From an uncultured Deinococcales bacterium (GTDB taxonomy: Bacteria; Deinococcota; Deinococci; Deinococcales; JAAFIG01): 13,418 nt of DNA. This document shows, one piece after another, positions 73 through 13,359 of this stretch. The stretch covers positions 1-13,418 of the forward strand of contig CAXTKV010000006.1 of NCBI GenBank assembly GCA_964244895.1. The letters run 5' to 3'. The translations under genes and the position numbers were made by a program. The notes beneath the pieces were generated by a model. The model saw only the letters and a list, made by a program, of their open reading frames with translations, did not search any database and was not told the DNA's origin. Every line of letters starts with the position of its first letter. The first letter of the stretch is position 1.

Positions 73-2819
73 ACCACACCGACCCAGCCACCGTGCAATC
101 CGATGAAACGCGTGCCCGCGTCGATGCCGCGCTCGGGTCTGGAACGCCGGAGGCTGTCTGGCCAACATCCGCCGCCGATGTCGCACAAGCGTTGGAGCGA
201 TCCCTCGCAACCGACGCGCAAGCGAAACGCCCCCAGAAAACACCGTCCAGCGCGCACGTCGATATTCGCGTCCCGGACGGTGTCACCGAGAAGGTTCCCC
301 CGAGCCGAACGCCTTCGGTCGCCCCCGGACGCCCGATCCTCGACGCGCTCACAGGCCTGCGGTTGTTCCTGGCGCTGAACATCATGAACTATCATTTCGG
401 TCTCGAGCAGTTCAAGGGCGCCCCAGCTTTCATCCGCAACATCGCCGATGCCGGGCACGTCGGCGTGAACCTGTTCTTCGTCATGACCGGGTTCATCCTC
501 AGTTACGTCTACCTGGATGCGAAAGGCGCGAGGCCGCTGAACGCCCGGCGCTTCTGGATCGCGCGCTTCTCGAGGCTCTATCCAGTTTACCTGCTCGGGT
601 TGCTGTTGTGGTTGCCGTTCTTGCCGCAAAAAATTGCCGATGAGAAACTCACCGGCTTCACCATCTTCGGCGTTCTGCTGAGCGTGCCATCGCTGACGCA
701 GGCGTGGTTTCCGGGTGCGGCCTGCCAGTGGAACTGTCCGGGATGGAGCGCCAGCACGGACGCCTTTTTTTACCTCGTCTTTCCACTGGTCGCGGCGTTC
801 CTTTACCCCCGGATTCGCTTCGACGGGCCGTGGAAGATCCTCGCCTGGGTCGGCGGTCTGTGGCTCGCCTCGCTCGTTCCACCGGCGCTTTACATGTTCG
901 CCGAGGCCACCGGCGAGTTCGTCGGCGGGTATCACTTCTGGCTGGCGGCGCTCAAGTACCATCCGCTCGCTCGCACGCCGGAATTTCTGATCGGCGTGGT
1001 GCTGGGCAAATATTTCTTGACGCTGCTCGAGCGCGGCCCGATCTCGGAGCGCTGGGGACGGGCGGGAACGGTCGCGGTGGGCGCGGTATTTTTGGTGCTC
1101 AGTGTCAGCCCCATCGTGCCGTACCCGTTGTTGCACAACGGTCTGCTCTTGCCGCTGTTCGCCGTGATCGTGCTCGGGCTCGCCTCGGGTCGCGGCGCGT
1201 TGACGCGTTTCCTGTCGATTCCACGCTTCGTTCGTCTGGGCGAGGCCAGTTACTGCCTGTACATCCTGCACAACCCGGTCTGGGAAGCGCTCTACCGCAG
1301 CCTGACGGCGCTTGGCATGAACACGGACGATGGGCACGCGTTCTGGTTTTACGCGCTCTACGCGGTGGTCGCCGTCGGATTGTCCTCCGTCGCGTTTCAC
1401 AGCTTCGAGGTTCCGATGCGCGAGCTGTTGCGCGCGAAGTTCGACCCGACATCCGGCGCTCGGGCGGCTTCAGGGATCAGGCCACCGCGGGTCTGGCCGA
1501 CCTCGTTGCCGACCTCCTGGCGGGGCTGGCCGTGGGGAACGTTGATTTCTGGTGCGGCCCTGGTCGTGGGGCTGCTCAACCTCGCGCTTTACGGGCACGC
1601 CTTTCCGGCCCAGCGCCTCGGGATGCCGAGTCCGCCCGCCGTAACCGCATCCATCGAACCGCAAGTCGTGCAGCTGATTGACCCGAGAAAACTCGAGGGC
1701 GGGTTGGGCGCTGCGGGCTGGCGCGCGCTTTCGGGCGAGTGGAAGCTCGAGGGTGGTGCGCTGACGCAAAAAACCAGAGCCGGCTTCGATCACCTGGCGT
1801 ACTCCACGACCAGCTTGACGCCGCCTTACACGCTTCGCGCGCAGTTCCGCGCCCCGGACGGCGGCGGGGCTGGTTTATCCTTTAACGCTCCCGATCCCGG
1901 CACGCGCAACGGAGCGCAGGTCGTGCGCTACAGCGACGACGGTAAGGGGTTGCTGTGGGGCCAATTCGATGCGCGCGGCGAGTACGTCAATCAAGGCTCT
2001 GCCAGCTTGAAACCCGAGCAAGCCAACCTGCCGAACTCGCTCCACGCGCTCGAGATCGAAGCCGAGCAGGATGCCTACACGATTCGTCTCGACGGGGCGG
2101 TGATCGCCAGCGACGTGCCGCTCATCTCGGAATCCGGGCACGCCGGATTGCAAAGTTCCGTGGGGACGGTGGCCTTCGACGCGCTCGAGGTGAGAACCGG
2201 GAACTCGAGCGTCGCGTCGAAGGCGCGAGCGGTAACGCCGAGCCCGAGCGCGCCTCAGACCGCAGTCTCGACCGACCCGCCGCCCGCCATCAAGGCATCG
2301 TTCACGGCGACGTTCGAGCGCCAACCGCTCGACGCCGGTTGGATCGCGGTGGGCGGAGACTGGGCGCTCGAGGGCAGCACCTACGTCCAGCGCCGCGCGG
2401 AGGGCTACGATCAGGGTCTTTTTTACAATCAGACTTTCGGTGCGCCGTACGTGTTGCACGTGCGCCTGAGGCACACGAGCGGCAGCGGCGGCGGCGCGTT
2501 CTTCAACGCCGCTCAAGCGGGTTCAAAAAATGCCTCGGAGATGGTGCGCTTCACCGACGATGGGCACGCGGTCGCGTGGGGCTCCTACGATGCCAACGGC
2601 GCGTTTGCCGGGCAGGGTTCCGCGCCCGTCCCGGTTCCCGGTCAGGCCGCCCACGATCTCGAGATCAACGTCTCCCAGAGCGCCTTCACCCTCAAACTGG
2701 ACGACCGGATTCTCGCCAAAGACGTGGCTTTTCAGGCCCGGAACGGGTACATCGGGCTTCAGACTTCGATGAGCGCCGTGGCCTTCGAAGCCGTCGAGGT
2801 CAAGCCGGAGGCCAAGTGA
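69..2819 (+). CDS. Acyltransferase-3 (OafA/YrhL-like) membrane O-acyltransferase fused to two C-terminal ConA/LamG-like (DUF1080-like) beta-sandwich domains, 916 aa
   Basis: AT3 motifs LDALTGLR, GVNLFFVMTGFIL, FWIARFSRLYPVY, GWSASTDAFFYLVFP, LGEASYCLYILH and FEVPMR, with about 10 hydrophobic helices and one further TM. Two related ~155-aa all-beta repeats at about 1716-2192 and 2337-2801. GGAG at 57-60 and the ATGA overlap support the start. Confidence 0.88.
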   Translation: MNHTDPATVQSDETRARVDAALGSGTPEAVWPTSAADVAQALERSLATDAQAKRPQKTPSSAHVDIRVPDGVTEKVPPSRTPSVAPGRPILDALTGLRLFLALNIMNYHFGLEQFKGAPAFIRNIADAGHVGVNLFFVMTGFILSYVYLDAKGARPLNARRFWIARFSRLYPVYLLGLLLWLPFLPQKIADEKLTGFTIFGVLLSVPSLTQAWFPGAACQWNCPGWSASTDAFFYLVFPLVAAFLYPRIRFDGPWKILAWVGGLWLASLVPPALYMFAEATGEFVGGYHFWLAALKYHPLARTPEFLIGVVLGKYFLTLLERGPISERWGRAGTVAVGAVFLVLSVSPIVPYPLLHNGLLLPLFAVIVLGLASGRGALTRFLSIPRFVRLGEASYCLYILHNPVWEALYRSLTALGMNTDDGHAFWFYALYAVVAVGLSSVAFHSFEVPMRELLRAKFDPTSGARAASGIRPPRVWPTSLPTSWRGWPWGTLISGAALVVGLLNLALYGHAFPAQRLGMPSPPAVTASIEPQVVQLIDPRKLEGGLGAAGWRALSGEWKLEGGALTQKTRAGFDHLAYSTTSLTPPYTLRAQFRAPDGGGAGLSFNAPDPGTRNGAQVVRYSDDGKGLLWGQFDARGEYVNQGSASLKPEQANLPNSLHALEIEAEQDAYTIRLDGAVIASDVPLISESGHAGLQSSVGTVAFDALEVRTGNSSVASKARAVTPSPSAPQTAVSTDPPPAIKASFTATFERQPLDAGWIAVGGDWALEGSTYVQRRAEGYDQGLFYNQTFGAPYVLHVRLRHTSGSGGGAFFNAAQAGSKNASEMVRFTDDGHAVAWGSYDANGAFAGQGSAPVPVPGQAAHDLEINVSQSAFTLKLDDRILAKDVAFQARNGYIGLQTSMSAVAFEAVEVKPEAK
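239..284. repeat. 46-bp dispersed imperfect palindrome, copy 1 (inside the acyltransferase CDS)
   Basis: AACACCGTCCAGCGCGC-ACGTCGATATTC-GCGTCCCGGACGGTGTC; aligns without gaps to copies at 4515, 6781 and 13228. Confidence 0.85.
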
Positions 2820-4411
2820 GCGACCCGCGCCGCGAACCGATCTCGAACCAGAAACTCGTCGTCTGGATCGCGCTCCTGGCGCTGGGTGCGGTGCTCGCCT
2901 ACGGGCTGTCCAGGATCGTGATTGACCTTTTCGCGCGCGCACAGCGGGCCGAACGGCTCGAGTCGGCGCTCCACCTGGTCGAGCCGCGCGAGGCGCGACC
3001 GGGGACGCTGACCTGGTTGCCGGACGCGCTCGGCGGGTCGCGCCCGATGGAGCGCTTCACCCGCGAGGGCATCGCCAGCGATTACCTGCTGGCCCTCGAG
3101 GAACTGTCGTTCGCGCGCTTGACCAAGGACGGCTCCGGTTTGCGCTCGCACTTTCAGGAGGGCGCCCTCGAGGACGCGCTGGCCGCCTCGCTCGGGCCGC
3201 GCGCGCACGTCGTCAGCTGGGATCACCACCTGAAACTTCACTTCTACGCGCCGGATGCCGCGACGATCTCTTTTACCGACACGCACTGGTACGCGCAGGC
3301 CCTGGACGGCGATCCTGGGTCGGCGCGCATCGCGCGGCGCGAGATGGATGTCGTGATGCAGCTCGACGATGGCGATTGGCGAGTTCACCACTGGCGCGTG
3401 AACCGCGACGAAGAACTCGAGGCTCCGGTGAAACCGGACGAACGTTTGGCGGCGAAGCTCGCCGCCTTGCGCGGGGTGAACTACGTCGGGCGCAGCGCGC
3501 CGTTCGGTGGGTTCTGGCCGGGCTTCGAGACCTCCGAAGTCCGCTCAGATTTCAGGTTGGCGGCCTCGCTTCGGCTGAACGCGGTGCGGATCTTCATCCC
3601 GTACCCGACGCCGGAGGTCGCGTTCGAGCATCTTTCTCAGCTCCTTCAGATCGCGCGCGCGGAGCGACTCGGCGTGATCGTGACGCTTCTGGACGGCTTC
3701 ACCACCTATCGGCTCGAGGATCTGCCCGGCGCGATGGGCAGTTTAGAGCGGCTCTCGAGGGCGCTGCGCGACCCGGCGGTGATCGCCGTGGACATCAAGA
3801 ACGAAGCCGAGCGCGACGCGCCGAAGGCCGGATGGAACCGCATACGCCCGTTCCTGAACTTCGTGGCGATTTGGGTGCGCTCCCGGACGGGCAAGCCCGT
3901 CACGGCGGGCCTGAGCGACCCCGATCCCGAACTCGCGCGAAGTCTGGACTTCGTGACGATCCATCACTATGGGCTGCTCTCGGCGCTCACAAGCAGGCTC
4001 GAGCGCGCTGGAAAGACCGGCAAGCCCGTGCTGCTCGAAGAGTTCGGCTTTCACACGCAAGCCTCCAAATTGCCCGATCCGCACACGGAACTCGAGCAAG
4101 CGCAGTTCTACGCGGACGCCCTCAGGTTGCTCGGGCCTGCGCGGGTCGGTTTTTTCGCGTGGACGCTCCACGATTTTCCGTCCGGGCTGATGCCGGGTGC
4201 AGCCGAGGTCGAACGCCACCTGGGATTGGTGCGGCCCGATGGCAGCTTCAAGCCCGCCGCCCGCGTGCTGTTGGGCGAACCGCCAGAGCCGATCCCGTGG
4301 TGGGACAAACTGGCCAAACTCCAAGCGCTGCTCGGACTCTGGCCGGTGGGGCTGATCGCGGTGGTCATCTTCAGTCTGGTGTTCCGACGCCGGTATCGGG
4401 CGCGGGTTTGA
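2816..4411 (+). CDS. Membrane-anchored glycoside hydrolase, clan GH-A (GH5/GH2-like TIM barrel), with N-terminal TM plus extra domain and a C-terminal TM, 531 aa
   Basis: Likely start is GTG 2816, overlapping the upstream TGA (GTGA), with GGAGG at 2807-2811; the ORF track start at 1955 is shadow overlap. Motifs RGVNY, LNAVRIF, DIKNEA (acid/base E330), DFVTIHHY, PVLLEEFG (nucleophile E409), FAWTLHDF, HLGL. Hydrophobic segments at both ends, the last followed by RRRYRAR. Confidence 0.85.
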   Translation: MSDPRREPISNQKLVVWIALLALGAVLAYGLSRIVIDLFARAQRAERLESALHLVEPREARPGTLTWLPDALGGSRPMERFTREGIASDYLLALEELSFARLTKDGSGLRSHFQEGALEDALAASLGPRAHVVSWDHHLKLHFYAPDAATISFTDTHWYAQALDGDPGSARIARREMDVVMQLDDGDWRVHHWRVNRDEELEAPVKPDERLAAKLAALRGVNYVGRSAPFGGFWPGFETSEVRSDFRLAASLRLNAVRIFIPYPTPEVAFEHLSQLLQIARAERLGVIVTLLDGFTTYRLEDLPGAMGSLERLSRALRDPAVIAVDIKNEAERDAPKAGWNRIRPFLNFVAIWVRSRTGKPVTAGLSDPDPELARSLDFVTIHHYGLLSALTSRLERAGKTGKPVLLEEFGFHTQASKLPDPHTELEQAQFYADALRLLGPARVGFFAWTLHDFPSGLMPGAAEVERHLGLVRPDGSFKPAARVLLGEPPEPIPWWDKLAKLQALLGLWPVGLIAVVIFSLVFRRRYRARV

Positions 4412-4514
4412 GGGAACAGGCTGATCCAAGCCCAGTGCATCCCGCGAACTTCGCATGGCTTTCCATCCTCGAGACCATCCATCGCGTCTGGAAATGTTTT
4501 CAGCATGTACGACG

Positions 4515-4560
4515 AACACCGTCCAGCACGCTAAATCATCCGTGTGTGCTGGACGGTACT
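4515..4560. repeat. 46-bp dispersed palindrome, copy 2 (intergenic, between convergent genes)
   Basis: AACACCGTCCAGCACGC-TAAATCATCCGT-GTGTGCTGGACGGTACT; perfect 12-bp stem 4518-4529/4546-4557. Confidence 0.88.
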
Positions 4561-4695
4561 TTGATGCAGTGCTGATCGGAGCCATCCCTTCAACCGTGGT
4601 GCGTTCTGCACTCAGAGGCGCTGACTGGGATTCCAGAGTCCAGTCAAAAGATATTCGATCTCGTGCCAAAGTCTTCGAAGCTGAATCTCGAGGGG

Positions 4696-4720
4696 AGGGC
4701 AGGTCGCGGGCCTGCCCTAC
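4696..4720 (-). repeat. GTAG-type REP-like hairpin (may also serve as a terminator)
   Basis: Minus strand reads GTAGGGCAGGCCCGCGACCTGCCCT: a GTAG tetranucleotide followed by a GC-rich palindrome, the architecture of GTAG-family REPs. Only one copy in the window. Confidence 0.45.
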
Positions 4721-4802
4721 ATCAGACGGTTTTGTGCGTCTAGAACCTGTCCTTCGCCCGGTCGAGCAACAGGTTTCCCGATTCGCAAGAGGTGAACTGC
4801 CA

Positions 4803-5882
4803 TCAGACGTATTGCTCGAGTTCGGGAGTGGATTTCATGCGCTCGACCAGACGTTTGATGTCCTGCGTGCGATCCTTGCGGGCCACCAGCGTGACGTTGC
4901 CATCGCGCACGATTACCACGTCTTCCAAGCCGATGGTCACGATCAGGTCTTCGCCCGTGGTCGTGTACAGAATCGCTCCGGAAGTGTCCAGACCCAGGTG
5001 CCGACCGACGGTCGCGTTTTGTGCCGTGCCCTGAATCAGTCGCGCCAGGGCATTCCAGTCGCCCAGGTCATCCCATCCGAACTCGCTCGGGATGACCTGG
5101 ACTTTGGCTGAACGTTCCATGATGGCGCGGTCGAGCGGCAGTTTGGGTACGCGCTCGAAGGCCGCTTGGAGGGTTTCAGCGGAACCAGCCTGCGCAGGCT
5201 CGAGGGCTTCCAGGTACTCGGGAGCGTATTGCTCGAATTCTGCGATCAGGCGACCCACCCGGAACACGAACATGCCCGCGTTCCACAGGAATTGACCCGA
5301 GGTCAGGAAGCGCTCAGCGGTCTCGTGGTCGGGCTTCTCGACGAAACGGCTGGCGCGGTAGAGCGAGTGCGCTTCGAAGGTGCGGAGTCGCTGTGCCGTT
5401 TCGATATAGCCGTATCCGGTGGCGGGATAGGTCGGTGTGATGCCGAGCGTCACGATTCCGTCCTCGCTTCTGGCCGCGTCGATGGCGGCACTCACCGTGT
5501 TCACAAACCCGAGCGGGTCACCGATGTGATGATCGGATGGGAAAATTCCCACGATCGCGTCTGGCCCGTGGCATTCCTGGATTCGGAGTGCGGCCAGCAG
5601 TACCGCAGGGGCGGTATCGCGCGCCATTGGTTCAATCACGAGGTTGTCTTTCGGCAGATCGGGAAGGTGATCGAGGATCAAGTCCCGGTGGGCTGATCCA
5701 GCCACGATGTACAGCGACTCGAGGCCATCGCACAGCGGCATCAACCGATCCGCCGTGGCCTGAATCAAGCTGCGGCTCGTACCGTTGAGCCTCAGAAATT
5801 GTTTGGGTTTCGAACGGCGCGAAAGCGGCCAGAAGCGCTCACCGCTACCGCCTGCCAGGATCACCGGGATGAACTGCGTCAT
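4803..5882 (-). CDS. manC: Mannose-1-phosphate guanylyltransferase (monofunctional, no cupin PMI domain), 359 aa
   Basis: VILAGGSGERFWPLSR..PKQFL, EPMARDTAPA, FPSDH, GITPTYPATGYGYI, FVEKPD, WNAGMF, WDDLGDW; strong RBS upstream. Confidence 0.95.
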   Translation of the reverse strand: MTQFIPVILAGGSGERFWPLSRRSKPKQFLRLNGTSRSLIQATADRLMPLCDGLESLYIVAGSAHRDLILDHLPDLPKDNLVIEPMARDTAPAVLLAALRIQECHGPDAIVGIFPSDHHIGDPLGFVNTVSAAIDAARSEDGIVTLGITPTYPATGYGYIETAQRLRTFEAHSLYRASRFVEKPDHETAERFLTSGQFLWNAGMFVFRVGRLIAEFEQYAPEYLEALEPAQAGSAETLQAAFERVPKLPLDRAIMERSAKVQVIPSEFGWDDLGDWNALARLIQGTAQNATVGRHLGLDTSGAILYTTTGEDLIVTIGLEDVVIVRDGNVTLVARKDRTQDIKRLVERMKSTPELEQYV

Positions 5883-5888
5883 ACGTCT

Positions 5889-5897
5889 TACCTCCTC
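5889..5897 (-). promoter_or_regulatory. Shine-Dalgarno sequence of manC
   Basis: Minus strand TAAGAGGAGGTAAGACGTATG: AGGAGGT 7 nt before the ATG. Confidence 0.75.
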
Positions 5898-6056
5898 TTA
5901 TGTATCGGACTTCGGTCTGTGCAAGAACGCCGCAGGCCGCGTTGAAAGCCTCCAAGACGGTCTGTCACCGAGTTGGAAACCGCCGAACCAGAGTGCAGCC
6001 GAACCACCGAATAATGTGTTAGCGTCCCTTGAACGTTGCACAAGGAGAAGGATTGG

Positions 6057-6662
6057 ATGATTTACCGTCTCGGTACTCAAGGGCGTCGAATCGCTGAAAC
6101 CCTGCGCCACCAGATCCTTTCGGGCGAACTGACGCTCGGGGACAAACTGCCTTCCCACGAGGTGCTCGCCGAGGATTTCGGTGTGGCTCCCATGACCGTG
6201 CGTCACGCCCTGGCGTTCCTCGAAAGCGAAGGCTGGGTCTCGCGCGAGCAGGGAAGAGGAACCTTCGTCAGGGCCGCCTCTCGAGGGCGGGTGCTGCTCG
6301 TGGATGACGATCCCGAGGGCCTCGGGTTGCTCGAGCGCCTGGTGAGTTCGATGGGGTTCGCGGTGAGCGTCGCCGATGGCCCCAAGCGCGGCCTGGAATT
6401 GCTTTTGAGCCACGAAGGGTTCGGATTGGTGCTGAGCGATGTCAGGATGCCGACGGCTGCCGATGGCATCGAGTTCATTCGCGATGTTCGTCGCCGTTGG
6501 CCATCCGTCCCGCTGGCCGCGCTGACGGGTTTCCCCGACGATCTCGCCACGTTGCACGGCTCCCAGGATTGCCCCATCTTGATTCTGGCCAAACCTGTCT
6601 ACCCCTCGCATCTCGAGAGCGCCCTGGAGTTCGCGTTCGGTCGAAGGAAGCTCCACGGCTGA
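6057..6662 (+). CDS. Regulator with N-terminal GntR winged-HTH and C-terminal receiver (REC) domain, 201 aa
   Basis: GntR: ILSGELTLGDKLPSHEVLAEDFGVAPMTVRHALAFLESEGWVSREQGRGTFV. REC: VLLVDDD, LVLSDVRMP (phosphoacceptor D), ALTG, LAKP. ATG 6057 preceded by AAGGAGAAGG. Confidence 0.9.
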   Translation: MIYRLGTQGRRIAETLRHQILSGELTLGDKLPSHEVLAEDFGVAPMTVRHALAFLESEGWVSREQGRGTFVRAASRGRVLLVDDDPEGLGLLERLVSSMGFAVSVADGPKRGLELLLSHEGFGLVLSDVRMPTAADGIEFIRDVRRRWPSVPLAALTGFPDDLATLHGSQDCPILILAKPVYPSHLESALEFAFGRRKLHG

Positions 6663-6694
6663 GCTCCCAATCCGGGACGTTGCGCAGTTGGTCA

Positions 6695-6736
6695 CCTCAG
6701 CCAAAATCGCGTGTTCGGCAACCTGAGGCTCTTTTT
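6695..6736 (+). terminator. Possible intrinsic terminator after the GntR-REC gene
   Basis: CCTCAG(CC)...(GG)CAAC-CTGAGG bulged stem followed by CTCTTTTT; the loop is large, so support is weak. Confidence 0.3.
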
Positions 6737-6780
6737 CAGCGAACATTTTTTCTTTGATCACCATGCGATTTCTTTCTGAA

Positions 6781-6826
6781 AACACCGTCCAGGACGCAAA
6801 TTAACGCTTGTGTCCCAGACGGTGTT
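6781..6826. repeat. 46-bp dispersed palindrome, copy 3 (intergenic, 15 bp after the lipoprotein stop; may double as its terminator)
   Basis: AACACCGTCCAGGACGC-AAATTAACGCTT-GTGTCCCAGACGGTGTT; 34/46 identical to copy 2 without gaps. The minus-strand RNA folds with G-U pairs and ends GGUGUUUUC. Confidence 0.88.
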
Positions 6827-6841
6827 CCATCCATATGCGCC

Positions 6842-9118
6842 TCAGTGCGGCGGGAAGAGCTTGCCCGAATCCCGGTAACCTGAGAGGTCGCGGTACCAGT
6901 CTTGAAAACTGGCTCCCTGGCTGGTCGCCCAGGGCTCGAACTTGAGATAGGCGTCTCGAATGTTCAGCCCGACGCTGACCGATCCACCCGGCTGATCCAG
7001 CACTTCTTCGACGTAGGTGTACTTCGTGGGTAAATTCATCGCCCAGGGTCGCCCGTTCGTATCGATGTAGTAGCGTCCGGTGCTGGGATTGGACGTGTCC
7101 TGATCGGTACCGAAGAGTGAGGTGTTGGCGAGCGCAGTCGGTTTCATGTTGGGCAAGTGAATTTCCGTGCCGCGCCCCCAGGCGGCTCCGTTCGCGATCA
7201 GGAACGGGTTGAACGGTGCGGTTCCAGCAGCGCCCATGGCGACGGGTTGCGCGAGCTTGATCGTGACTTTGACCTTGCCGGGGGTGCGGTACGGTTCGTC
7301 CGGCACGACGTTCGCGTAATACGGGCGACCGGGAAGCGAGGCAGAAAGCACGTCGTAACCATCGTCGAACACGATCACCACGGCCTTGCCCTGTCCCGCC
7401 TCGAGCCCGCTCGAGAGTCGGTTCGAGGTGTAACGAATCGGTGGCGCGCCGTTCTGGCTCTGGCCATCTTTTTCCCAGGCGTAGCTGACGCTCGAGACCT
7501 GCGCGGGCGTCAGGTTCGTCTCGAAGCCGAAGCCGCTGTGGTAACCGCCACCGAGCGCCCTCAGCACGAACTCGGCTTGAATCTCGACGACCTGATTGCT
7601 GGCGTTGGCGACCTGCGTGACGTTGTAATCGACTGCCGTGTCGTTGAAGTCGTAATCGCCGAGCTTCGGCCAGAGGTCCTCGAACACCAGCGAGCCGTAG
7701 TCGCCCTTGGCGGGCGCGTACGAGTTGAACGCCTTGGTGGGATCGTTCGGGTACGCGTCGAAGGTGTCGTTGACGCCATCTCCGTCGGCGTCCTGGGCTT
7801 GCGGCGTATCGAGATCCTTGATATCGGCGGTGCGGGTCGCGTCCGGATTTTGGGGGTCGCGCGTGATGATGCCGGTGGTCTGGATGGCCGTGTTGGGTGT
7901 GGCGTTCACCAGCAGGACGGTGTCGTTGAAGTCCTCGTCTCCGCCGCGGAAACGCAGCGTATCCTCCAGGCCCAGCACCAGCCCGTTCGTCCCCGCGTTG
8001 CGCAACAGCACGGTCTGCGCGCTCTTGGCCACGGTCATGCCCTGAGACTTGTAGGTCTGGTAGTTCAGGACGGGATCGGAAAACACCGTCTGTTCCGGCG
8101 TGCGCTCCTGAACGCCCGTGGCGCTGCCGCGCCAGCCGTTGGCGACCAGAAACCAGCCGATGCCCGTACCCGCCGGAAAGGTGTTGCTCCACTGCCCGTT
8201 CGAGGTGTCGAGATACTTCAGTTGCACGCGATTTCCCGAGGCCATTCCGCCGCCCGAACCAATGTACGAGGCGTTCGGGTAGGCGATCACGGTGCGGTTC
8301 AGGATCTCACTGACGCTCTTGGGTGGGTTGGCGGCGTTAAACGTGTAGTAGCCGATCGAGTTCAGGTAGCCCGCGCCCTCGTGGATGAAGGTCAGCGTCA
8401 CCTCGGCTGGGTCTTTCAGCACCAGGTTGCTCGAGGCATCCTGGGCGATGTACTGGCTGCGGCTGGGGCTGTTGGGTACGGAGGCTCGCTCCGGCACGCT
8501 GGCGTTGATCGATTGCAGCAAGGCCGGGGTGACTTCGCTCGAGTTGCTCAGGCGGTTGGTCGGTACGCCCTGGCTATCCCACGAACCCGTGCCGTTCAGA
8601 TACTGATAGCTGTACGCGACCGATTGGGTTCGGATTGCGGTCGCAGAAGCCCGTCGGTTTTGTGGCACCATGACCTGCAAGGTGCTGATGTTCGTTCCGT
8701 TCAGGTTGAGCTTCGCTTGTCCGTTTTTGATGTCCACCTTGATCGGTTCGCTGATCACGCCGATGTAATCGACCCTCACGCCGACCGCTTTCAGGTCGGC
8801 GGGCAACGTCAGTTGGGTGCGGAACGTTCCAGTGGCATCGGTCATGCCGCCTTGGACTTGGGTGTTCTCGTCGACGGTGCCGTCGGCGGCGAAACCCTGA
8901 AAGACGCTGATCGGGGCGCGCGGGGCGGCTTCTCCCAGGGCACTGACGGAAACCTCGAGCTGAACCTTCTGGGTCGTCCCAAAGTTGAAGCCCCCCTGGT
9001 CGACTGGTGGGTCGATGTTGGGGGTTTGGGTCGTACAAGCCATCAGGGCGGCTCCGCATATCAATGGAAGCGCTCGGAAGAAACGGTTTAATATCTGCTG
9101 GCGGACTATATTTTTCAT
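6842..9118 (-). CDS. LruC-domain lipoprotein (DUF4114 plus DUF4842-like), 758 aa
   Basis: Basic N-region and lipobox LMA-C28; TFIHEGAGYLNSIGYY; GLEDTLRFRGGDEDFNDTV; Asp-rich DADGDGVNDTFDAYPNDP; FEDLWPKLGDYDFND; FNPFLI, EIHLPNMKPT, PWAMNLP, AYLKFEPWA. GAGGTG upstream. Confidence 0.85.
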   Translation of the reverse strand: MKNIVRQQILNRFFRALPLICGAALMACTTQTPNIDPPVDQGGFNFGTTQKVQLEVSVSALGEAAPRAPISVFQGFAADGTVDENTQVQGGMTDATGTFRTQLTLPADLKAVGVRVDYIGVISEPIKVDIKNGQAKLNLNGTNISTLQVMVPQNRRASATAIRTQSVAYSYQYLNGTGSWDSQGVPTNRLSNSSEVTPALLQSINASVPERASVPNSPSRSQYIAQDASSNLVLKDPAEVTLTFIHEGAGYLNSIGYYTFNAANPPKSVSEILNRTVIAYPNASYIGSGGGMASGNRVQLKYLDTSNGQWSNTFPAGTGIGWFLVANGWRGSATGVQERTPEQTVFSDPVLNYQTYKSQGMTVAKSAQTVLLRNAGTNGLVLGLEDTLRFRGGDEDFNDTVLLVNATPNTAIQTTGIITRDPQNPDATRTADIKDLDTPQAQDADGDGVNDTFDAYPNDPTKAFNSYAPAKGDYGSLVFEDLWPKLGDYDFNDTAVDYNVTQVANASNQVVEIQAEFVLRALGGGYHSGFGFETNLTPAQVSSVSYAWEKDGQSQNGAPPIRYTSNRLSSGLEAGQGKAVVIVFDDGYDVLSASLPGRPYYANVVPDEPYRTPGKVKVTIKLAQPVAMGAAGTAPFNPFLIANGAAWGRGTEIHLPNMKPTALANTSLFGTDQDTSNPSTGRYYIDTNGRPWAMNLPTKYTYVEEVLDQPGGSVSVGLNIRDAYLKFEPWATSQGASFQDWYRDLSGYRDSGKLFPPH

Positions 9119-9491
9119 GACACCTCGTGGGGGTAAATTTCAGCTCCGCAAGGAATGTGGCCTGTACGTTTGGCGATCAAACCCCGTCAGAACTGCGCTG
9201 GCTGCTTCGCGTGAGCGATTCGCGGATGGGTCGTCTCTGAGAAAGATTTGGAATCTCTTTGATCTGGTGCGCTCGTGAAGCGCGACAGAACGTAGCTTTA
9301 TCTGATCTGGGTTCCGATCGCGCTACTGCTTCGATCCTCGCTTTCCGGATGCAATAGCAACCGGACGCGAGATCGAGAAACGATTCAGCGTGTGCCGGTC
9401 GCGCCACTGGCTCCCCTTCATCCCATGGCGCCCGCATCGGGTATGAAGGATCTGCACCTCTATTTCAAAATGCTAGCAGAATAATGGACTC

Positions 9492-10799
9492 GTGCCTGGT
9501 CATTCTCACCGCGTCACCACCCACTCAACACCGATGGGTTCAGGAGTGGTCGCTTCAAGTCTCAAAACTATCGCGCCGCTGTGTGCGCTCTTCCTGGTTT
9601 TGTTCGGACTCAACTTCGGGCTGCACGCGCGCGTCGCACCTCCGACGCTCGAGCGCTTGACGCTTCCGTACTGGAACACCTTTGAGCGAACGAGCTTCGA
9701 TTGGATTCCACTTCAAAACGCGTGGCGCGTCGAAGGCGGCTGGCTGCGTCCGACGGGTGCCACGACTTCGAGCGCTCAATCGAGTCGGGCCGTCACGCCT
9801 GGAATTTCGTACCGTCTGATGGTGATGGCGCACCTGGAAGTTGATTCCACGGTCAGCGCGCTCTTCGGCGGGCAGGCGCGCGGTCAACTGGTGCGCACGC
9901 ATCGCGTCAGGCTGGTACGTCACGAACGCTCCAGCGTGGTGCAGTGCGGATATTTTGACCAGGAGGGGCGATTTCAGCTTCAGGATGAAGTCGCCCTTCC
10001 GAGTTCCAGTCGCGATACACGGCTCGAAATCGAGGTCGGTACGGCGGTGTACGCCATCCGAGTCGATGGGCGACGCGTGCTCGAGTCGCAGCCGTTGAAG
10101 TTCGCGGGCGGTTTCCCTGGACTCGAGGCGAGCGGGGGTTCCGCCATCGGTGAGATTCTGATCCGGCCCGGCCTGAGGTACGACCCGAATGAGGCCGTCA
10201 CTGCGTCCGCAGCGAACGCTTCGCTGCCTAAAATCTCGACTGATACCCTCGAGGGCTCGGGTTGGCAGGTACTTTCCGGCGCTTGGTCGCTCGGCCCGAG
10301 CGGGCTGATGCAGGCCGATAACCGCGATTTCGACCGCGTCGTTTTGTACAAAGCCCAGCCCTTCACCCTCGGGACGATTCGCGTGTCCTTCCGTCAGACT
10401 CGAGGCGCTGGCGCTGGCATTTTATTTGCCGCGCCCGATCTTGCGACTGGAGTGCAAGGAGCGCAGCTGGTGCGTTACAGCGATGATGGACGCATCATTT
10501 TCTGGGGCACCTTCGATCCGCAAGGACGCTTCATTGGGCGCGGCAATCGGACGGTTCTTGCACCCGGTGTACGCGCGCACACGCTCGAAGTGGTCGTCGA
10601 CAGCGGTGCGTACGCGATCAAGCTCGATGGCGTTGAACTCGTGCGAGGCGTGTCGCTCGAACGATCCAGCGGTTACATCGGCCTGAGCACCTCCAAGAGC
10701 GCCGCCGCATTTACCCGCGTTACGGTGACGTCCCTCGAAGCTGGAAAGCTGAACAAGGAACGCGACATCGTCCGAACTGGACAAAACCCGACCCGCTGA
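9492..10799 (+). CDS. Membrane-anchored or secreted protein with two ConA/LamG-like (DUF1080-like) beta-sandwich domains; start uncertain (GTG 9492 or ATG 9534)
   Basis: N-terminal hydrophobic helix IAPLCALFLVLFGLNFGL. Domains at about 9699-10168 (diverged) and 10260-10730 (GAQLVRYSDDG..FWGTFD..G, GYIGLSTS) are homologous to the acyltransferase C-terminal repeats. Confidence 0.8.
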   Translation: MPGHSHRVTTHSTPMGSGVVASSLKTIAPLCALFLVLFGLNFGLHARVAPPTLERLTLPYWNTFERTSFDWIPLQNAWRVEGGWLRPTGATTSSAQSSRAVTPGISYRLMVMAHLEVDSTVSALFGGQARGQLVRTHRVRLVRHERSSVVQCGYFDQEGRFQLQDEVALPSSSRDTRLEIEVGTAVYAIRVDGRRVLESQPLKFAGGFPGLEASGGSAIGEILIRPGLRYDPNEAVTASAANASLPKISTDTLEGSGWQVLSGAWSLGPSGLMQADNRDFDRVVLYKAQPFTLGTIRVSFRQTRGAGAGILFAAPDLATGVQGAQLVRYSDDGRIIFWGTFDPQGRFIGRGNRTVLAPGVRAHTLEVVVDSGAYAIKLDGVELVRGVSLERSSGYIGLSTSKSAAAFTRVTVTSLEAGKLNKERDIVRTGQNPTR

Positions 10800-10805
10800 G
10801 GCCTC

Positions 10806-12059
10806 ATGACGATACAGAGCGAACCCCAACCGCTGATCGATGTTGAACACCTGCCGGAAGTCGCACCGATGGCCGGAACGATTCCGGTCGTTGCGCCTAG
10901 GCGAGCCTGGTGGCTGGATGTGGCGCTGATTTTTTTGGTCAATCGTCTCTGCCTGTGGCTGATCGCGTTCATCGCCCAGGTCGCTTTACCGGTGCAGACG
11001 GGCGCGGGGTTTTACCACGCTGCGCCCGGCAACTTGTGGTTGGACGGTTGGGCGCGGTGGGACAGCGGCTTCTACCTGGAGATCGCGAGCGGTGGCTACA
11101 GGCTCACATTCGGGGAACCCTCGAGCGTCGCTTTTTTTCCTCTCTATCCAATTTTCGTGAACCTCGTTTCGCGAATCACCAACAATGCCCTGATCGCCGG
11201 TATTTTGGTCAGTCATGCGGCGCTTCTGGGCGCGCTCTTGGTGCTGTACAAACTGACCCTTCTCGAGTTTGGCCACAGCACTGCGCGCCGAGCGGTGTAC
11301 TACATTCTGATCTTCCCGACAGCCTTCTTCTTCAGCGCCGTCTACACGGAAAGCCTGTACCTGCTGTTGACCGTCGGTTGCGCCTATTGCGCCAGGAGAC
11401 GCTGGTGGGCTTGGGCCGGCGTGTTGGGTTGCCTGGCGAGCGCCACCCGTATTGTCGGCATCAGTCTGGTCGCGCTCGTCGCACTCGAGTGGCTCCGCGA
11501 CAACGGTTTCAGGTTCCGCACGGCGCACCGTCTCGAAGCCTGGCGGAATCTCTGGTCGGGTTTCAGCAGGCGCGGCTACCAGCTCGTCTGGCTTCTCGCG
11601 ATCCCTTTGGGTCTCGTCAGTCAGATGGTCTTTCTCGGGCGCGCCTTCGGGGATCCGATCGCTTTCTGGACGACCCAGGCGACCTTTGGCCGGACGGGTT
11701 TCAACCCGCTCGTCGCGCTCATACGCGATCTTGAACCGGTGTTCCGATATTCGAGCGGGCGCCTGCCCTGGAACGTCCCCATCGACCTCGCAGCCTTGGT
11801 ACTCGTGCTCGCCTCGAGCGTCTGGATCGGCTCGAAGCTGGGCAGCAGCTACGCGGTCTACGCGCTGATCGGCGTTTTCGTGCCGCTGGCGGGTGGGACG
11901 GGCAGCCTCGCCCGGTACGTGGTAGTGCTGTTTCCAGTCTTCATGGTGCTGGCGCACGCGGGACGAAAACCGATGATCGATGGCGCGATCAGAACCATCT
12001 GGCCGATCGGTCTGGGCCTCCTGACGGCGCTGTTTGTTTGTTGGGTGTTCGTCGGCTGA
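10806..12059 (+). CDS. GT-C membrane mannosyltransferase, PIG-V/Mannosyl_trans2-like, 417 aa
   Basis: WARWDSGFYLEIASGGY, VAFFPLYP, FPTAFFFSAVYTESLYLLL, SATRIVG, SLARYVVVLFP; polytopic. GAGG RBS overlaps the upstream stop, 6-bp gap. Confidence 0.87.
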   Translation: MTIQSEPQPLIDVEHLPEVAPMAGTIPVVAPRRAWWLDVALIFLVNRLCLWLIAFIAQVALPVQTGAGFYHAAPGNLWLDGWARWDSGFYLEIASGGYRLTFGEPSSVAFFPLYPIFVNLVSRITNNALIAGILVSHAALLGALLVLYKLTLLEFGHSTARRAVYYILIFPTAFFFSAVYTESLYLLLTVGCAYCARRRWWAWAGVLGCLASATRIVGISLVALVALEWLRDNGFRFRTAHRLEAWRNLWSGFSRRGYQLVWLLAIPLGLVSQMVFLGRAFGDPIAFWTTQATFGRTGFNPLVALIRDLEPVFRYSSGRLPWNVPIDLAALVLVLASSVWIGSKLGSSYAVYALIGVFVPLAGGTGSLARYVVVLFPVFMVLAHAGRKPMIDGAIRTIWPIGLGLLTALFVCWVFVG

Positions 12060-12183
12060 ATAGAGCCCCGCGATCAGGCTGACTCAGGTGTCGGCCCGTC
12101 GGTAAAGAAACGCTTCCTGTATTTGAGACAATGGGGTTTACGCGAGGCGTATTCACTGAACGCGCCCCGAAACTCACAAAAAC

Positions 12184-13359
12184 TCAATCCTCCAGGTGAA
12201 CCCTCGTCAGATTTGCTTCCGCGACCAAGTGAACGATGAAGCAGGTTCCCCCGAATGGCGCGGACTCGATCCGTATCGTTCCGGCGTTGCGTTCGAGAAT
12301 TCGTCGAACGATCTCGAGCCCCAGCCCCGTGTTCGAGCGCTTTGGGTCGAGGGTGAATCCGCGCTCGAACACCAGTTCGTGGTGCTGTGCGGCGATGCCC
12401 GGCCCGTTGTCGCAGACCCGCAGCGCGATGCGCTCACCGATCTGCTCGCACTCGATAGTGACTTTCGGGGCTGACGCCTCGCGTCCAGCAAACCGGACGG
12501 CATTGCCGAGAAGATTCAGCATGACTCGGTAAAGTTCCAGGTGCGCACATCGAACCGAAGGCCAGCTTTCCGGCAGCGTGATCTCCACGCCTCGCGTTCG
12601 CATTTCAGGCTCGAGATCCTCGATGGCGCACTGAACCGCAGCGCCGAGATCGCTCCAGGCTCGCTCGGGCGGCGACCGATCTGAAGTTTGAGCATTCAGA
12701 GTGGCCCGAATCAGATCGCTCATCCGGTGCACGCCGCTCGAGATGCGCTCGAGCGCCCAGCGCGAATCACCTCGCTGACCCACGGCGGCGGCTACGGCGA
12801 TATTGTTCAGTACAACCCGCAGGTCGTGCGCGATAGTGTCTGCGGCGTCCTCGGCCCGCTTGCGTTCGTCGATGTCCGTCTGCGTTCCGATCCAGTCGGT
12901 GATCTCGGCGCTCATCGATACGGGCTCAGCGTGAATGGCGAACCATCGATACGGCCCATCGCTACCGCGTACTCGAAGCTCCAGATCGAGGGTTGCAGAC
13001 CTCCTCGTGGCGAACCACCAAGCGGCCTCGAAGCGCGCTCGGTCGCCGGGGTGAATGGCGCAAAGGACACCGCCTTCCAGCGCGTCGGCGCGATTCCAGC
13101 CCGTGTATCGGTACCAGGATCGGTTGAAGAAATGGGCGCGACCATCGCTTGGCGAGACCAACCAGACGTGATGAGGGAGCGCGTCCAAATACGATTGAGC
13201 CGCGCGCTCGAGCGGTTGATCTCGAGCGATACCGTCCGGTACGCAAATCCTTCCTTGCGTCTGGGACGGTGTTTTTGTTCCTGGGGTGGAAACGGACGCA
13301 TCCTTGAGAACGCCCGAGGGTGAGCGAAGGAGCCCCGTCGGGGAATCTGAAACGGTCAC
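12184..13359 (-). CDS. Cytoplasmic PAS/PAC sensor histidine kinase, 391 aa
   Basis: PAS_3-like FFNRSWYRYTG..IHPGDR..YRWF..WIGTQTDIDERK; H-box IAHDLR; N-box NLLGNAVRF; G1 DNGPGI; F FERGFT; G2 GLGLEIV; no TM. GAGG 7 nt before GTG 13359. Confidence 0.9.
   Translation of the reverse strand: MTVSDSPTGLLRSPSGVLKDASVSTPGTKTPSQTQGRICVPDGIARDQPLERAAQSYLDALPHHVWLVSPSDGRAHFFNRSWYRYTGWNRADALEGGVLCAIHPGDRARFEAAWWFATRRSATLDLELRVRGSDGPYRWFAIHAEPVSMSAEITDWIGTQTDIDERKRAEDAADTIAHDLRVVLNNIAVAAAVGQRGDSRWALERISSGVHRMSDLIRATLNAQTSDRSPPERAWSDLGAAVQCAIEDLEPEMRTRGVEITLPESWPSVRCAHLELYRVMLNLLGNAVRFAGREASAPKVTIECEQIGERIALRVCDNGPGIAAQHHELVFERGFTLDPKRSNTGLGLEIVRRILERNAGTIRIESAPFGGTCFIVHLVAEANLTRVHLED
13228..13273. repeat. 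46-bp dispersed palindrome, copy 4 (inside the histidine kinase CDS)
   Basis: GATACCGTCCGGTACGC-AAATCCTTCCTT-GCGTCTGGGACGGTGTT; same length and arm sequence as the other three copies. Confidence 0.85.

Follow-up and report, generated by a model that had tools for sequence, protein, structure and literature searches.

Paired 21-bp dyads dispersed in a Deinococcales genome as putative sites for a DNA-bending protein

Four copies of a 46-bp element and their surroundings

The stretch of DNA considered here (the window) spans the first 13,418 nucleotides of contig CAXTKV010000006.1 from an uncultured Deinococcales bacterium (assembly GCA_964244895.1, 91% complete; genome size 5.12 Mb), for which gene calls were produced with our own script. 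Among its genes lie four copies of a 46-bp element, to which no strand is assigned. Copy 1 (239..284) is situated in frame within the N-terminal leader of an acyltransferase ORF (69-2819), and the peptide that it encodes is retained in the corresponding position by homologs of 90% and 75% identity; at 75% protein identity the arms of the element are kept while the spacer and flanks are altered. Copy 2 (4515..4560) is found in a convergent gap between ORFs ending at 4411 (+) and 4803 (-), and copy 3 (6781..6826) in another convergent gap, 15 bp beyond the stop codon of a minus-strand DUF4114/DUF4842 gene. Copy 4 (13228..13273) is located 5′ of a PAS histidine kinase ORF or within its 5′ extension, the start codon being uncertain. 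Copies 1, 3 and 4 are covered, with few gaps, by contigs that are about 93% similar; none covers copy 2.

The coordinates and the eight half-sites listed in an earlier note on this DNA are borne out by the sequence, as are the invariance of ACCGTC (8/8 half-sites), the presence of ACRC in 7/8 and the exchange of C13 for G13 between copies. Likewise, none of the boundaries tried shows a target-site duplication of 2-9 bp, and none of the eight window proteins scanned is a transposase or recombinase. The note was also right to propose a double-stranded DNA site for a dimeric protein, but not in treating each 17-bp arm as a half-site: each arm is a whole dyad site, and the element therefore consists of two sites rather than two half-sites. 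The basic unit, exemplified by 239..259 (+), is a 21-bp pseudo-palindrome with the core CGTS-NNN-SACG, CG steps at positions 6/7 and 15/16, and higher conservation in its outer than in its inner half. The units of copy 1 are centred at 249 and 274, 25 bp apart, and those of copies 2, 3 and 4 at 4525 and 4550, 6791 and 6816, and 13238 and 13263, respectively. The 12-bp centre of copy 1 (256..267, no strand) is AT-rich and represents the joined inner flanks of both units; in the 46-bp class as a whole this centre is 69% AT, versus 39% in the flanks. Including its A/T-rich flanks, a unit extends over roughly 33 bp.

Abundance, pairing and distribution

The genome-wide scan suggested in the earlier note yields 606 matches to ACCGTC-N28-GACGGT, many more than chance would give, and none to the reversed pattern, with most other spacings giving 0-7. 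A spacer of one constant length, as seen in the window, does not hold for the genome, since further peaks occur at N29 (80), N38 (322), N39 (122) and N3 (251). These additional peaks indicate that the unit is the 21-bp dyad, pairing at centre spacings of 25/26 or 35/36 bp; intermediate 30/31-bp forms are rare. Counted individually, the 21-bp sites number about 4,000-4,100. Coding DNA holds just 16 of 722 copies. A pair is present in 443 of 559 convergent and 314 of 622 divergent gaps, copies are crowded within 20 bp of stop codons (194/377 versus 58), and plasmid and island contigs contain few. About one cluster is found per intergenic gap, whatever the gap length, a pattern that may also arise through recombinational loss of neighbouring repeats rather than selection.

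Almost all copies are distinct (719/722), with no shared flanks and no target duplication. The hexamer CTCGAG was considered as a target duplication and rejected: it stands on both flanks less often than expected (7 versus 15.6), and its excess is family-wide, which that of the element is not. There is no strand bias in the repeat family (orientation 205 versus 195) and no replication-strand bias with GC3-skew as proxy. G-U and A-C combinations are equally frequent in the pairs (311 each) and U-tracts show no bias; together with the lack of orientation bias, this points to a DNA rather than an RNA element. Arms match each other perfectly in 105 of 710 members of the 46-bp class (33 by chance) and seldom in the 56-bp class (7/320 versus 2.8). 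Long-range covariation is restricted to mirror positions, and with regard to a hairpin of the whole element, covarying arms are found in the 46-bp class alone and positions 18-20 pair less than by chance. The centre of the pair is its least conserved part. Arm matching and crowding at stop codons are also typical of REPs.

Among 363 genomes searched, the source genome is essentially the only one with the paired form, and the core pair pattern, found 457 times there, is absent from five other genomes. Data from G327 contribute to none of the conclusions. A sample of about 250 kb from eight genomes of relatives showed no analogous families of other sequence, and a metagenome scan for sister strains yielded nothing above 54% identity. 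Viral contigs gave no paired matches and 68 single-unit matches, many from one repeated virus and judged to be near chance level. Relaxed single-unit patterns produced excess noise in GC-rich genomes. A collection scan gave at least three loci, the plasmid collection contained no match for a cassette-flanking site, and no protein common to the unit-bearing mobile elements was found. The element has no match in Rfam, and no description of the motif was encountered in the literature searched.

Placement at origins, CRISPR leaders and tRNA ends

Placement at replication origins was assessed with a profile built from the source genome, scored over 52 positions; 30 origins were fetched, of which 24 could be anchored. 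In 17 of the 24 the best position precedes the last DnaA box by 19 or 20 bp, and in one by 18 bp, although 9 of these 18 in-place matches score below 5 bits; the unit is absent from six anchored origins, three of them from genus g13. The oriC of the source genome carries a 20-bit unit at the same place. Since the genomes compared are kin, such counts over genomes overstate independence. In Escherichia coli, IHF occupies 30-35 bp between boxes R1 and R5M (PMC10325909), and the 17 origins with a unit at 19-20 bp have it in the equivalent interval, which runs from the DUE-proximal DnaA box to its neighbour. HU at the origins of E. coli and Thermotoga maritima takes a similar interspace position, and Yoshida et al. 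count that of Thermus thermophilus among origins that may have an HU region. The E. coli and T. maritima proteins are described as lacking sequence specificity, whereas here conserved bases mark the site.

In CRISPR leaders a unit centred 23-24 bp from the first repeat is among the two best sites in 16 of 23, with five core bases invariant in all 16, and a second unit is found at 116-118 bp in 12 of 23; the proximal site is missing in seven. The IHF site of the E. coli type I-E leader spans -9 to -35 (PMC5224486), a centring about 22 bp from the leader-repeat junction that the 16 leaders reproduce, and multiple IHF sites are reported for I-C and I-F leaders, as far as 100-200 bp upstream (bioRxiv 2023.05.26.542337).

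Across the order Deinococcales, and among Deinococcus-Thermus relatives, the 21-bp site is located where IHF stands in the oriC and CRISPR leaders of E. coli. IHF also serves in plasmid origins and beside att sites, and the unit has similar settings: it is found between iterons and an AT-rich tract beside RepA genes at four plasmid loci (L233, L354, L357 and L377), weakly (9.9 bits) in the same setting on the plasmid contig C15 of the source genome, and, in other genomes, adjoining att repeats and integrase genes. Integrase neighbourhoods revealed no special arrangement. At tRNA ends, a unit occurs at 5 of 30 unselected loci versus 0 of 30 reversed-pattern controls, and just beyond the 3′ end in 14 of 66 tRNA calls. 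The extent of the unit resembles that of E. coli IHF sites (30-35 bp), but the IHF consensus WATCAAnnnnTTR is not present, the unit being a GC-rich dyad. Moreover, IHF is almost confined to proteobacteria, the putative binder here is probably a homodimer, and the source genome has thousands of phased pairs. IHF is mostly absent outside proteobacteria, and the unit supplies a motif and exact positions for candidate bending sites at origins, leaders and att sites in a group that includes T. thermophilus and Deinococcus radiodurans.

Candidate binding protein and competing explanations

The element is very probably an architectural double-stranded DNA site, and the unit is likely a recognition site for a host DNA-bending protein, most probably a sequence-selective HU. 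HU-family proteins kink DNA at two points separated by 9 bp, and the stretch covered by T. maritima HU measures 35.5 bp for a lone protein and 26.8 bp where proteins are packed into arrays and share flanks (PMC2475624). The CG steps of the unit are likewise 9 bp apart and its two pair spacings correspond to these published site sizes, a fit that is geometric only but makes a sequence-directed HU a likely binder. An HU/IHF-family gene is present in 80 of 81 genomes and is mostly single-copy in families f4 and f5, which also carry the motif, in keeping with a homodimer on a dyad. The arm tip reads GV[K/R]PGT at 29 of 30 loci and in all three source-genome paralogs, on C103, C117 and C10, against GRNPKT in IHF; the valine is shared with T. 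maritima HU, so that this residue alone is no mark of specificity. HU genes have a unit upstream only mildly more often than shuffled sequences do (8/29 at 10 bits or more versus 5%). D. radiodurans HU reportedly binds loosely (PMC8999374), and Thermotoga profunda HU is described as assisting CRISPR integration, with EMSA giving no leader preference (PMC13769266). Named by position and geometry only, HU is somewhat better than an even bet as the binder.

One homodimer would bind each unit, kinking the DNA at the two CG steps, with the A/T-rich flanks, some 13 bp away from the unit centre, wrapped around the protein. At 25/26 bp two dimers would share a flank, and at 35/36 bp they would abut. 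These spacings equal 2.4-2.5 and 3.3-3.4 helical turns, so the bends should point in roughly opposite directions and give a zig-zag path. The pair may have been multiplied long ago in the source lineage, possibly via a copying element, and then retained between transcription units as a bent joint, occupied by protein, which could compact the chromosome or buffer adjacent genes; that host selection retained the amplified pairs falls a little short of an even chance. More tentatively still, Deinococcales HU might be a sequence-directed, homodimeric equivalent of IHF, with about 2,500 HU joints, mostly oppositely phased pairs at one per transcription-unit gap, forming a sequence-encoded chromatin whose two-state code is the spacing, 25 or 35 bp. 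For the explanation as a whole, namely paired 21-bp dyads at IHF positions as a bending-protein site, probably for HU, amplified in this genome, we estimate a probability of about 0.6. With its two classes of spacing and natural variants numbering roughly 4,000, the genome would provide a ready profile of binding and cooperativity. If selection has kept the pairs, a housekeeping architectural site has turned into a genome-wide organiser, and REP-like repeats have a route by which to arise or be domesticated.

The identity of the binder is a matter on which the placement evidence is mute, and the site could serve another dimeric host protein, such as an uncharacterised helix-turn-helix bender in the role of IHF or Fis. 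HU is generally described as sequence non-specific, and a helix-turn-helix dimer would also fit half-sites lying some 5 bp to each side of the centre. This alternative is nonetheless unlikely, as the 9-bp CG spacing, the extent and A/T-rich flanks of the unit favour an HU/IHF fold, both spacings match T. maritima HU site sizes, and no other candidate emerged in the analyses made, short of a proteome screen. Somewhat more doubtful is that the pairs are selfish REPIN- or MITE-like hairpin doublets, copied by an HUH transposase, with ends that are or have captured the host site, and now mostly neutral. Inverted doublets of imperfect palindromes at discrete spacings with unique spacers are indeed traits of REPINs such as those of Pseudomonas fluorescens SBW25 (PMC3337134), and the expansion in a single lineage, the intergenic and stop-proximal location, the arm matching and the scarcity on plasmid and island contigs agree with such an origin. 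In genome G202 the unit (43 matches) forms part of a repeat whose copies have the same spacer and, at a distance of 36 bp, a second, weak unit, which indicates that such a pair can spread by copying. However, a RAYT is flanked by its own repeat, and the sole RAYT-like (Y1 transposase type) gene detected by tblastn, at C12:40664-41188, is accompanied by repeats of the GTAGGGG type and lies more than 1.4 kb from any unit; no transposase linked to the family was found, and Pfam searches of the genome gave no reverse transcriptase, although with assembly completeness of 91% a second one could be missing. The distinctness of the copies, the mirror-only covariation and the near lack of arm matching in the 56-bp class also speak against it, the A/T-rich centre pairs poorly, and copying leaves unexplained the conserved single-copy role at oriC and leaders order-wide and the conservation of copy 1 in place. 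The REP/MITE option of the earlier note is tenable as a history of spread. DDE-type MITEs differ in having target-site duplications and near-identical copies. CGTC-tagged REPs (Di Nocera et al. 2013, with Deinococcus unmentioned in the main text) are similarly intergenic, near stop codons and devoid of a dedicated transposase, but the element has CGTC inside the paired arm at both ends rather than as an unpaired terminus, and lacks both their CCA tail and their stem of 8-9 bp with a loop of 4-5 nt.

RNA hairpins that terminate or stabilise transcripts would account for the enrichment after stop codons, in convergent gaps and past tRNA 3′ ends, and fully palindromic single units do show some U-tract bias (20/76 versus 5/76); a minority of units probably double as terminators. 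As an explanation of the pairs this is very improbable: they have none of the strand-specific features of an intrinsic terminator (G-U preference, orientation bias, U-tract), half of the divergent gaps contain one, and after several tRNAs (L167, L215, L217 and L223) the unit precedes a separate terminator hairpin. The earlier view that the element is no simple terminator is upheld by this lack of asymmetry, by the helical-step spacing and by the fixed placement in oriC and leaders. Least probable of all is a role in DNA uptake or as an att-like site for a recombinase. Units adjoin att repeats elsewhere and the source genome has 11 tyrosine-recombinase matches, yet the pair centre is variable, 30/31-bp intermediates are rare, Pfam searches of the genome found no resolvase or IS110, and uptake sequences, unlike the element, are not scarce in coding DNA. 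Among the three options raised in the earlier note, nucleoid organiser fits best, and an att-like site is at odds with the variable centre and thousands of copies.

The E. coli BIME-1/RIB elements are likewise dispersed repeats at gene ends carrying a bending-protein site. In those, REPs flank one IHF site, whereas the element described here is itself composed of putative bending sites.

Anatomy and genomic placement of the repeat

The 46-bp palindromic repeat is a genuine family, and its four copies in the window were confirmed at the positions first recorded for them (239-284, 4515-4560, 6781-6826 and 13228-13273). The source genome (5.12 Mb in 328 contigs, 62.7% GC, 91% complete) holds the pattern ACCGTC-N28-GACGGT, whose genome-wide count the earlier note had proposed, 606 times, and the reversed pattern not once. 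The note's constant spacer length did not hold, as there are further peaks at N29 (80), N38 (322), N39 (122) and N3 (251), other spacings being mostly found 0-7 times. Nor are the arms half-sites, since the N3 peak makes every arm a complete dyad, AACACCGTC-NNN-GACGGTGTT, referred to here as the unit, with higher conservation in its outer than in its inner half. Conservation reaches about 16 bp either side of the unit centre, and a pyrimidine-purine hexamer closes both sides.

A profile search recovered 4,098 unit sites of at least 16 bits, and in the profile control 4,598 matches in the genome stood against 18 in the reversed genome. The 2,565 unit clusters comprise 1,050 singles, 1,497 pairs and 18 triples, in which neighbouring units lie mainly 25 (728), 26 (97), 35 (432) or 36 bp (154) apart, with minor classes at 24, 30/31, 34 and 41 bp. 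The main spacings correspond to 2.4-2.5 and 3.3-3.4 helical turns (at 10.5 bp per turn), and spacings of whole turns are rare. A weak partner, with the same spacing peaks as in pairs, accompanies 602 of 1,023 single units examined.

By the analysis's own gene calls (4,612 genes), 683 of the 722 46-bp copies fall between genes, 16 within them and 23 at contig edges. Of the gaps of at least 60 bp, elements occupy 443 of the 559 convergent, 1,303 of the 2,066 tandem and 314 of the 622 divergent ones, and 194 of 377 copies lie within 20 bp of a stop codon (58 expected). The number of elements per gap is about one regardless of gap length (mean 0.97, variance 0.17 in convergent gaps of 150-200 bp). 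Three contigs are nearly devoid of elements: C5; C15, which encodes a RepA homolog; and C50, with genes for defence and from mobile elements. About 30 genes have paired elements in frame in low-complexity linkers or supplying stop codons (for example, C25:8754-8799 and C274:3659-3704), and several units are interspersed among the densely arrayed tRNA genes, over 20 in number, of C151:8015-11705.

DNA or RNA, mobility and age

Among paired elements, G-U and A-C mismatches on the transcribed strand are equally frequent (311 vs 311), orientation is random (205 vs 195), and no U-tract bias was found beside them; some bias is seen solely at full-palindrome single units (20/76 vs 5/76). In the 46-bp class, arm-to-arm matching exceeds the chance level (105 of 710 vs 33) and is located at positions 1-3 and 10-13, sparing 14-17, and there is hardly any in the 56-bp class of paired elements; long-range covariation falls at mirror positions. 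We read this matching and covariation as local arm-to-arm correction, and selection for a hairpin stands as another possible source of the matching.

Nearly all 46-bp copies are distinct in sequence (719 of 722), and no target-site duplication was found for them, as noted earlier for the window. The unit pair has the shape of a REPIN as outlined in PMC3337134, but is without a matching RAYT. A RAYT-like HUH gene of the source genome (C12:40664-41188), found by tblastn and missed by Pfam, bears another repeat, of GTAGGGG type, at its start and inside the gene. A dispersed family of about 140 bp of GTAGGGG type is also present (for example, C45:12825-12960). That the element fails the CGTC-REP layout, as first suggested, was upheld against the description in PMC3733652. 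Mosaic small repeats are described for D. radiodurans (PMC1978522).

Copy 1, in frame in the leader of an acyltransferase gene, is old: homologs at 90% and 75% identity (compared as proteins only) preserve the residues that the arms encode, in position as well as in length, and differ in spacer and flanks. Contigs of about 93% similarity run across copies 1, 3 and 4 with few gaps.

Replication origins, CRISPR leaders and the candidate binding protein

In the oriC of the source genome, a single unit separates the cluster of DnaA boxes from the final box ahead of the AT-rich tract. Across 24 origins that could be anchored (30 fetched), taking the best of 52 positions in each, the unit lies 19 or 20 bp before the last DnaA box in 17, 18 bp before it in one and elsewhere in six; many of the scores are low. 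Among 23 CRISPR leaders (usable leaders from 22 of 30 cas2 loci, and L361; the junction of L446 is uncertain), a unit among the two best sites lies 23-24 bp from the first repeat in 16, with five core bases invariant, and is absent there in seven. A second unit is found 116-118 bp from the first repeat in 12 of the 23.

In E. coli, IHF sites are described in the oriC interval between R1 and R5M (PMC10325909) and in the type I-E leader from -9 to -35 (PMC5224486), and additional upstream IHF sites are described for I-C and I-F leaders (bioRxiv 2023.05.26.542337). Because the unit occupies the positions of E. coli IHF in both settings, it marks the slots of IHF in a group whose members are reported to lack this protein; IHF, as PMC13769266 describes it, is nearly restricted to proteobacteria. 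Taking the family for ordinary REP-like repeats leaves these origin and leader sites unexplained. By placement the unit would act as an IHF site does, yet it departs from the IHF consensus. No description of its motif was found in the literature searched, a scope outside which a 2021 leader-motif survey falls.

The best candidate for the binder is HU, as predicted from several features. HU-family dimers are described as kinking DNA in two places separated by 9 bp, and T. maritima HU as occupying 35.5 bp when single and 26.8 bp when arrayed with its flanks sandwiched (PMC2475624); the conserved CG steps of the unit are 9 bp apart and the unit spacings 25/26 and 35/36 bp. HU/IHF genes occur in 80 of 81 genomes, mostly singly in families f4 and f5, and number three in the source genome, whose HU is closest to that of T. 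thermophilus (5EKA); the T. thermophilus origin is one of those that Yoshida et al. list as having a potential HU region. Named homologs, and this HU as well, place the source organism in the Deinococcales. The arm tip GV[K/R]PGT is common to the HU/IHF proteins of the source genome and its relatives. Against HU speak the loose DNA binding described for D. radiodurans HU (PMC8999374), the account of T. profunda HU in PMC13769266 as having no leader preference, and the mildness of unit enrichment upstream of HU genes (8 of 29 at 10 bits or more vs 5% in shuffles).

Other genomes and accompanying repeats

The paired pattern has 960 matches in the source genome and at most one in each of 362 others, one of these directly after a tRNA-Lys end. 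Single units lie at tRNA 3′ ends in 5 of 30 unselected loci vs 0 of 30 reversed-pattern loci (28 of them coding), and in 19 of 90 loci of a set enlarged by 60 hand-picked ones, mostly without a recurring coding match. Units are also found between iterons and an AT-rich tract beside RepA genes (L233, L354, L357 and L377), near transposase genes and within primase-integrase elements, in their repeat-rich stretches. In a defence-island context, a site of about 100 bp with a unit at each end lies on both sides of a conserved gene without Pfam family (L234:1880-1990 and 2860-2985; L241:3000-3130; L355), and is possibly a cassette recombination site. One genome of family f5 (G202) has 43 unit matches, which belong to a copied repeat where a weak second unit lies at a distance of 36 bp. 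This dispersed repeat (L176-L205; about 40 copies on the unit pair, flanked by degenerate 6-7-mer tandem repeats) is an independent, smaller expansion of the unit. A genome of another genus, otherwise without the element, has one complete 46-bp copy (L001:1659-1704), which may stem from transfer or from a binning error.

A second small mobile family in the source genome consists of 36-42 bp modules with covarying stems that insert precisely into the outer half of the 46-bp element, without clear duplication, and also occur in tandem and nested within one another (for example, C29:31944-32059, C91:9540-9657 and C174:2207-2324). Their 111 pattern matches, a few of which are probably false, form 77 arrays, with 59 touching an element, and the family resembles cyanobacterial SDR elements as these are described. 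CTCGAG is the commonest hexamer of the genome (21,883 copies) and has a density of about 4.6-6.8 per kb in all of 18 genomes of family f1. It is a highly iterated palindrome like HIP1, but outside cyanobacteria, and adjoins 15% of element ends vs 0.6% background. A further dispersed family of about 130 bp has some 10 near-identical copies (for example, C3:2632-2758 and C201:3661-3791). The window also holds a c-di-GMP-II-GAG riboswitch (RF03169) at 9384-9470 on the minus strand (47.9 bits, above the gathering score), upstream of a DUF4114/DUF4842 gene.
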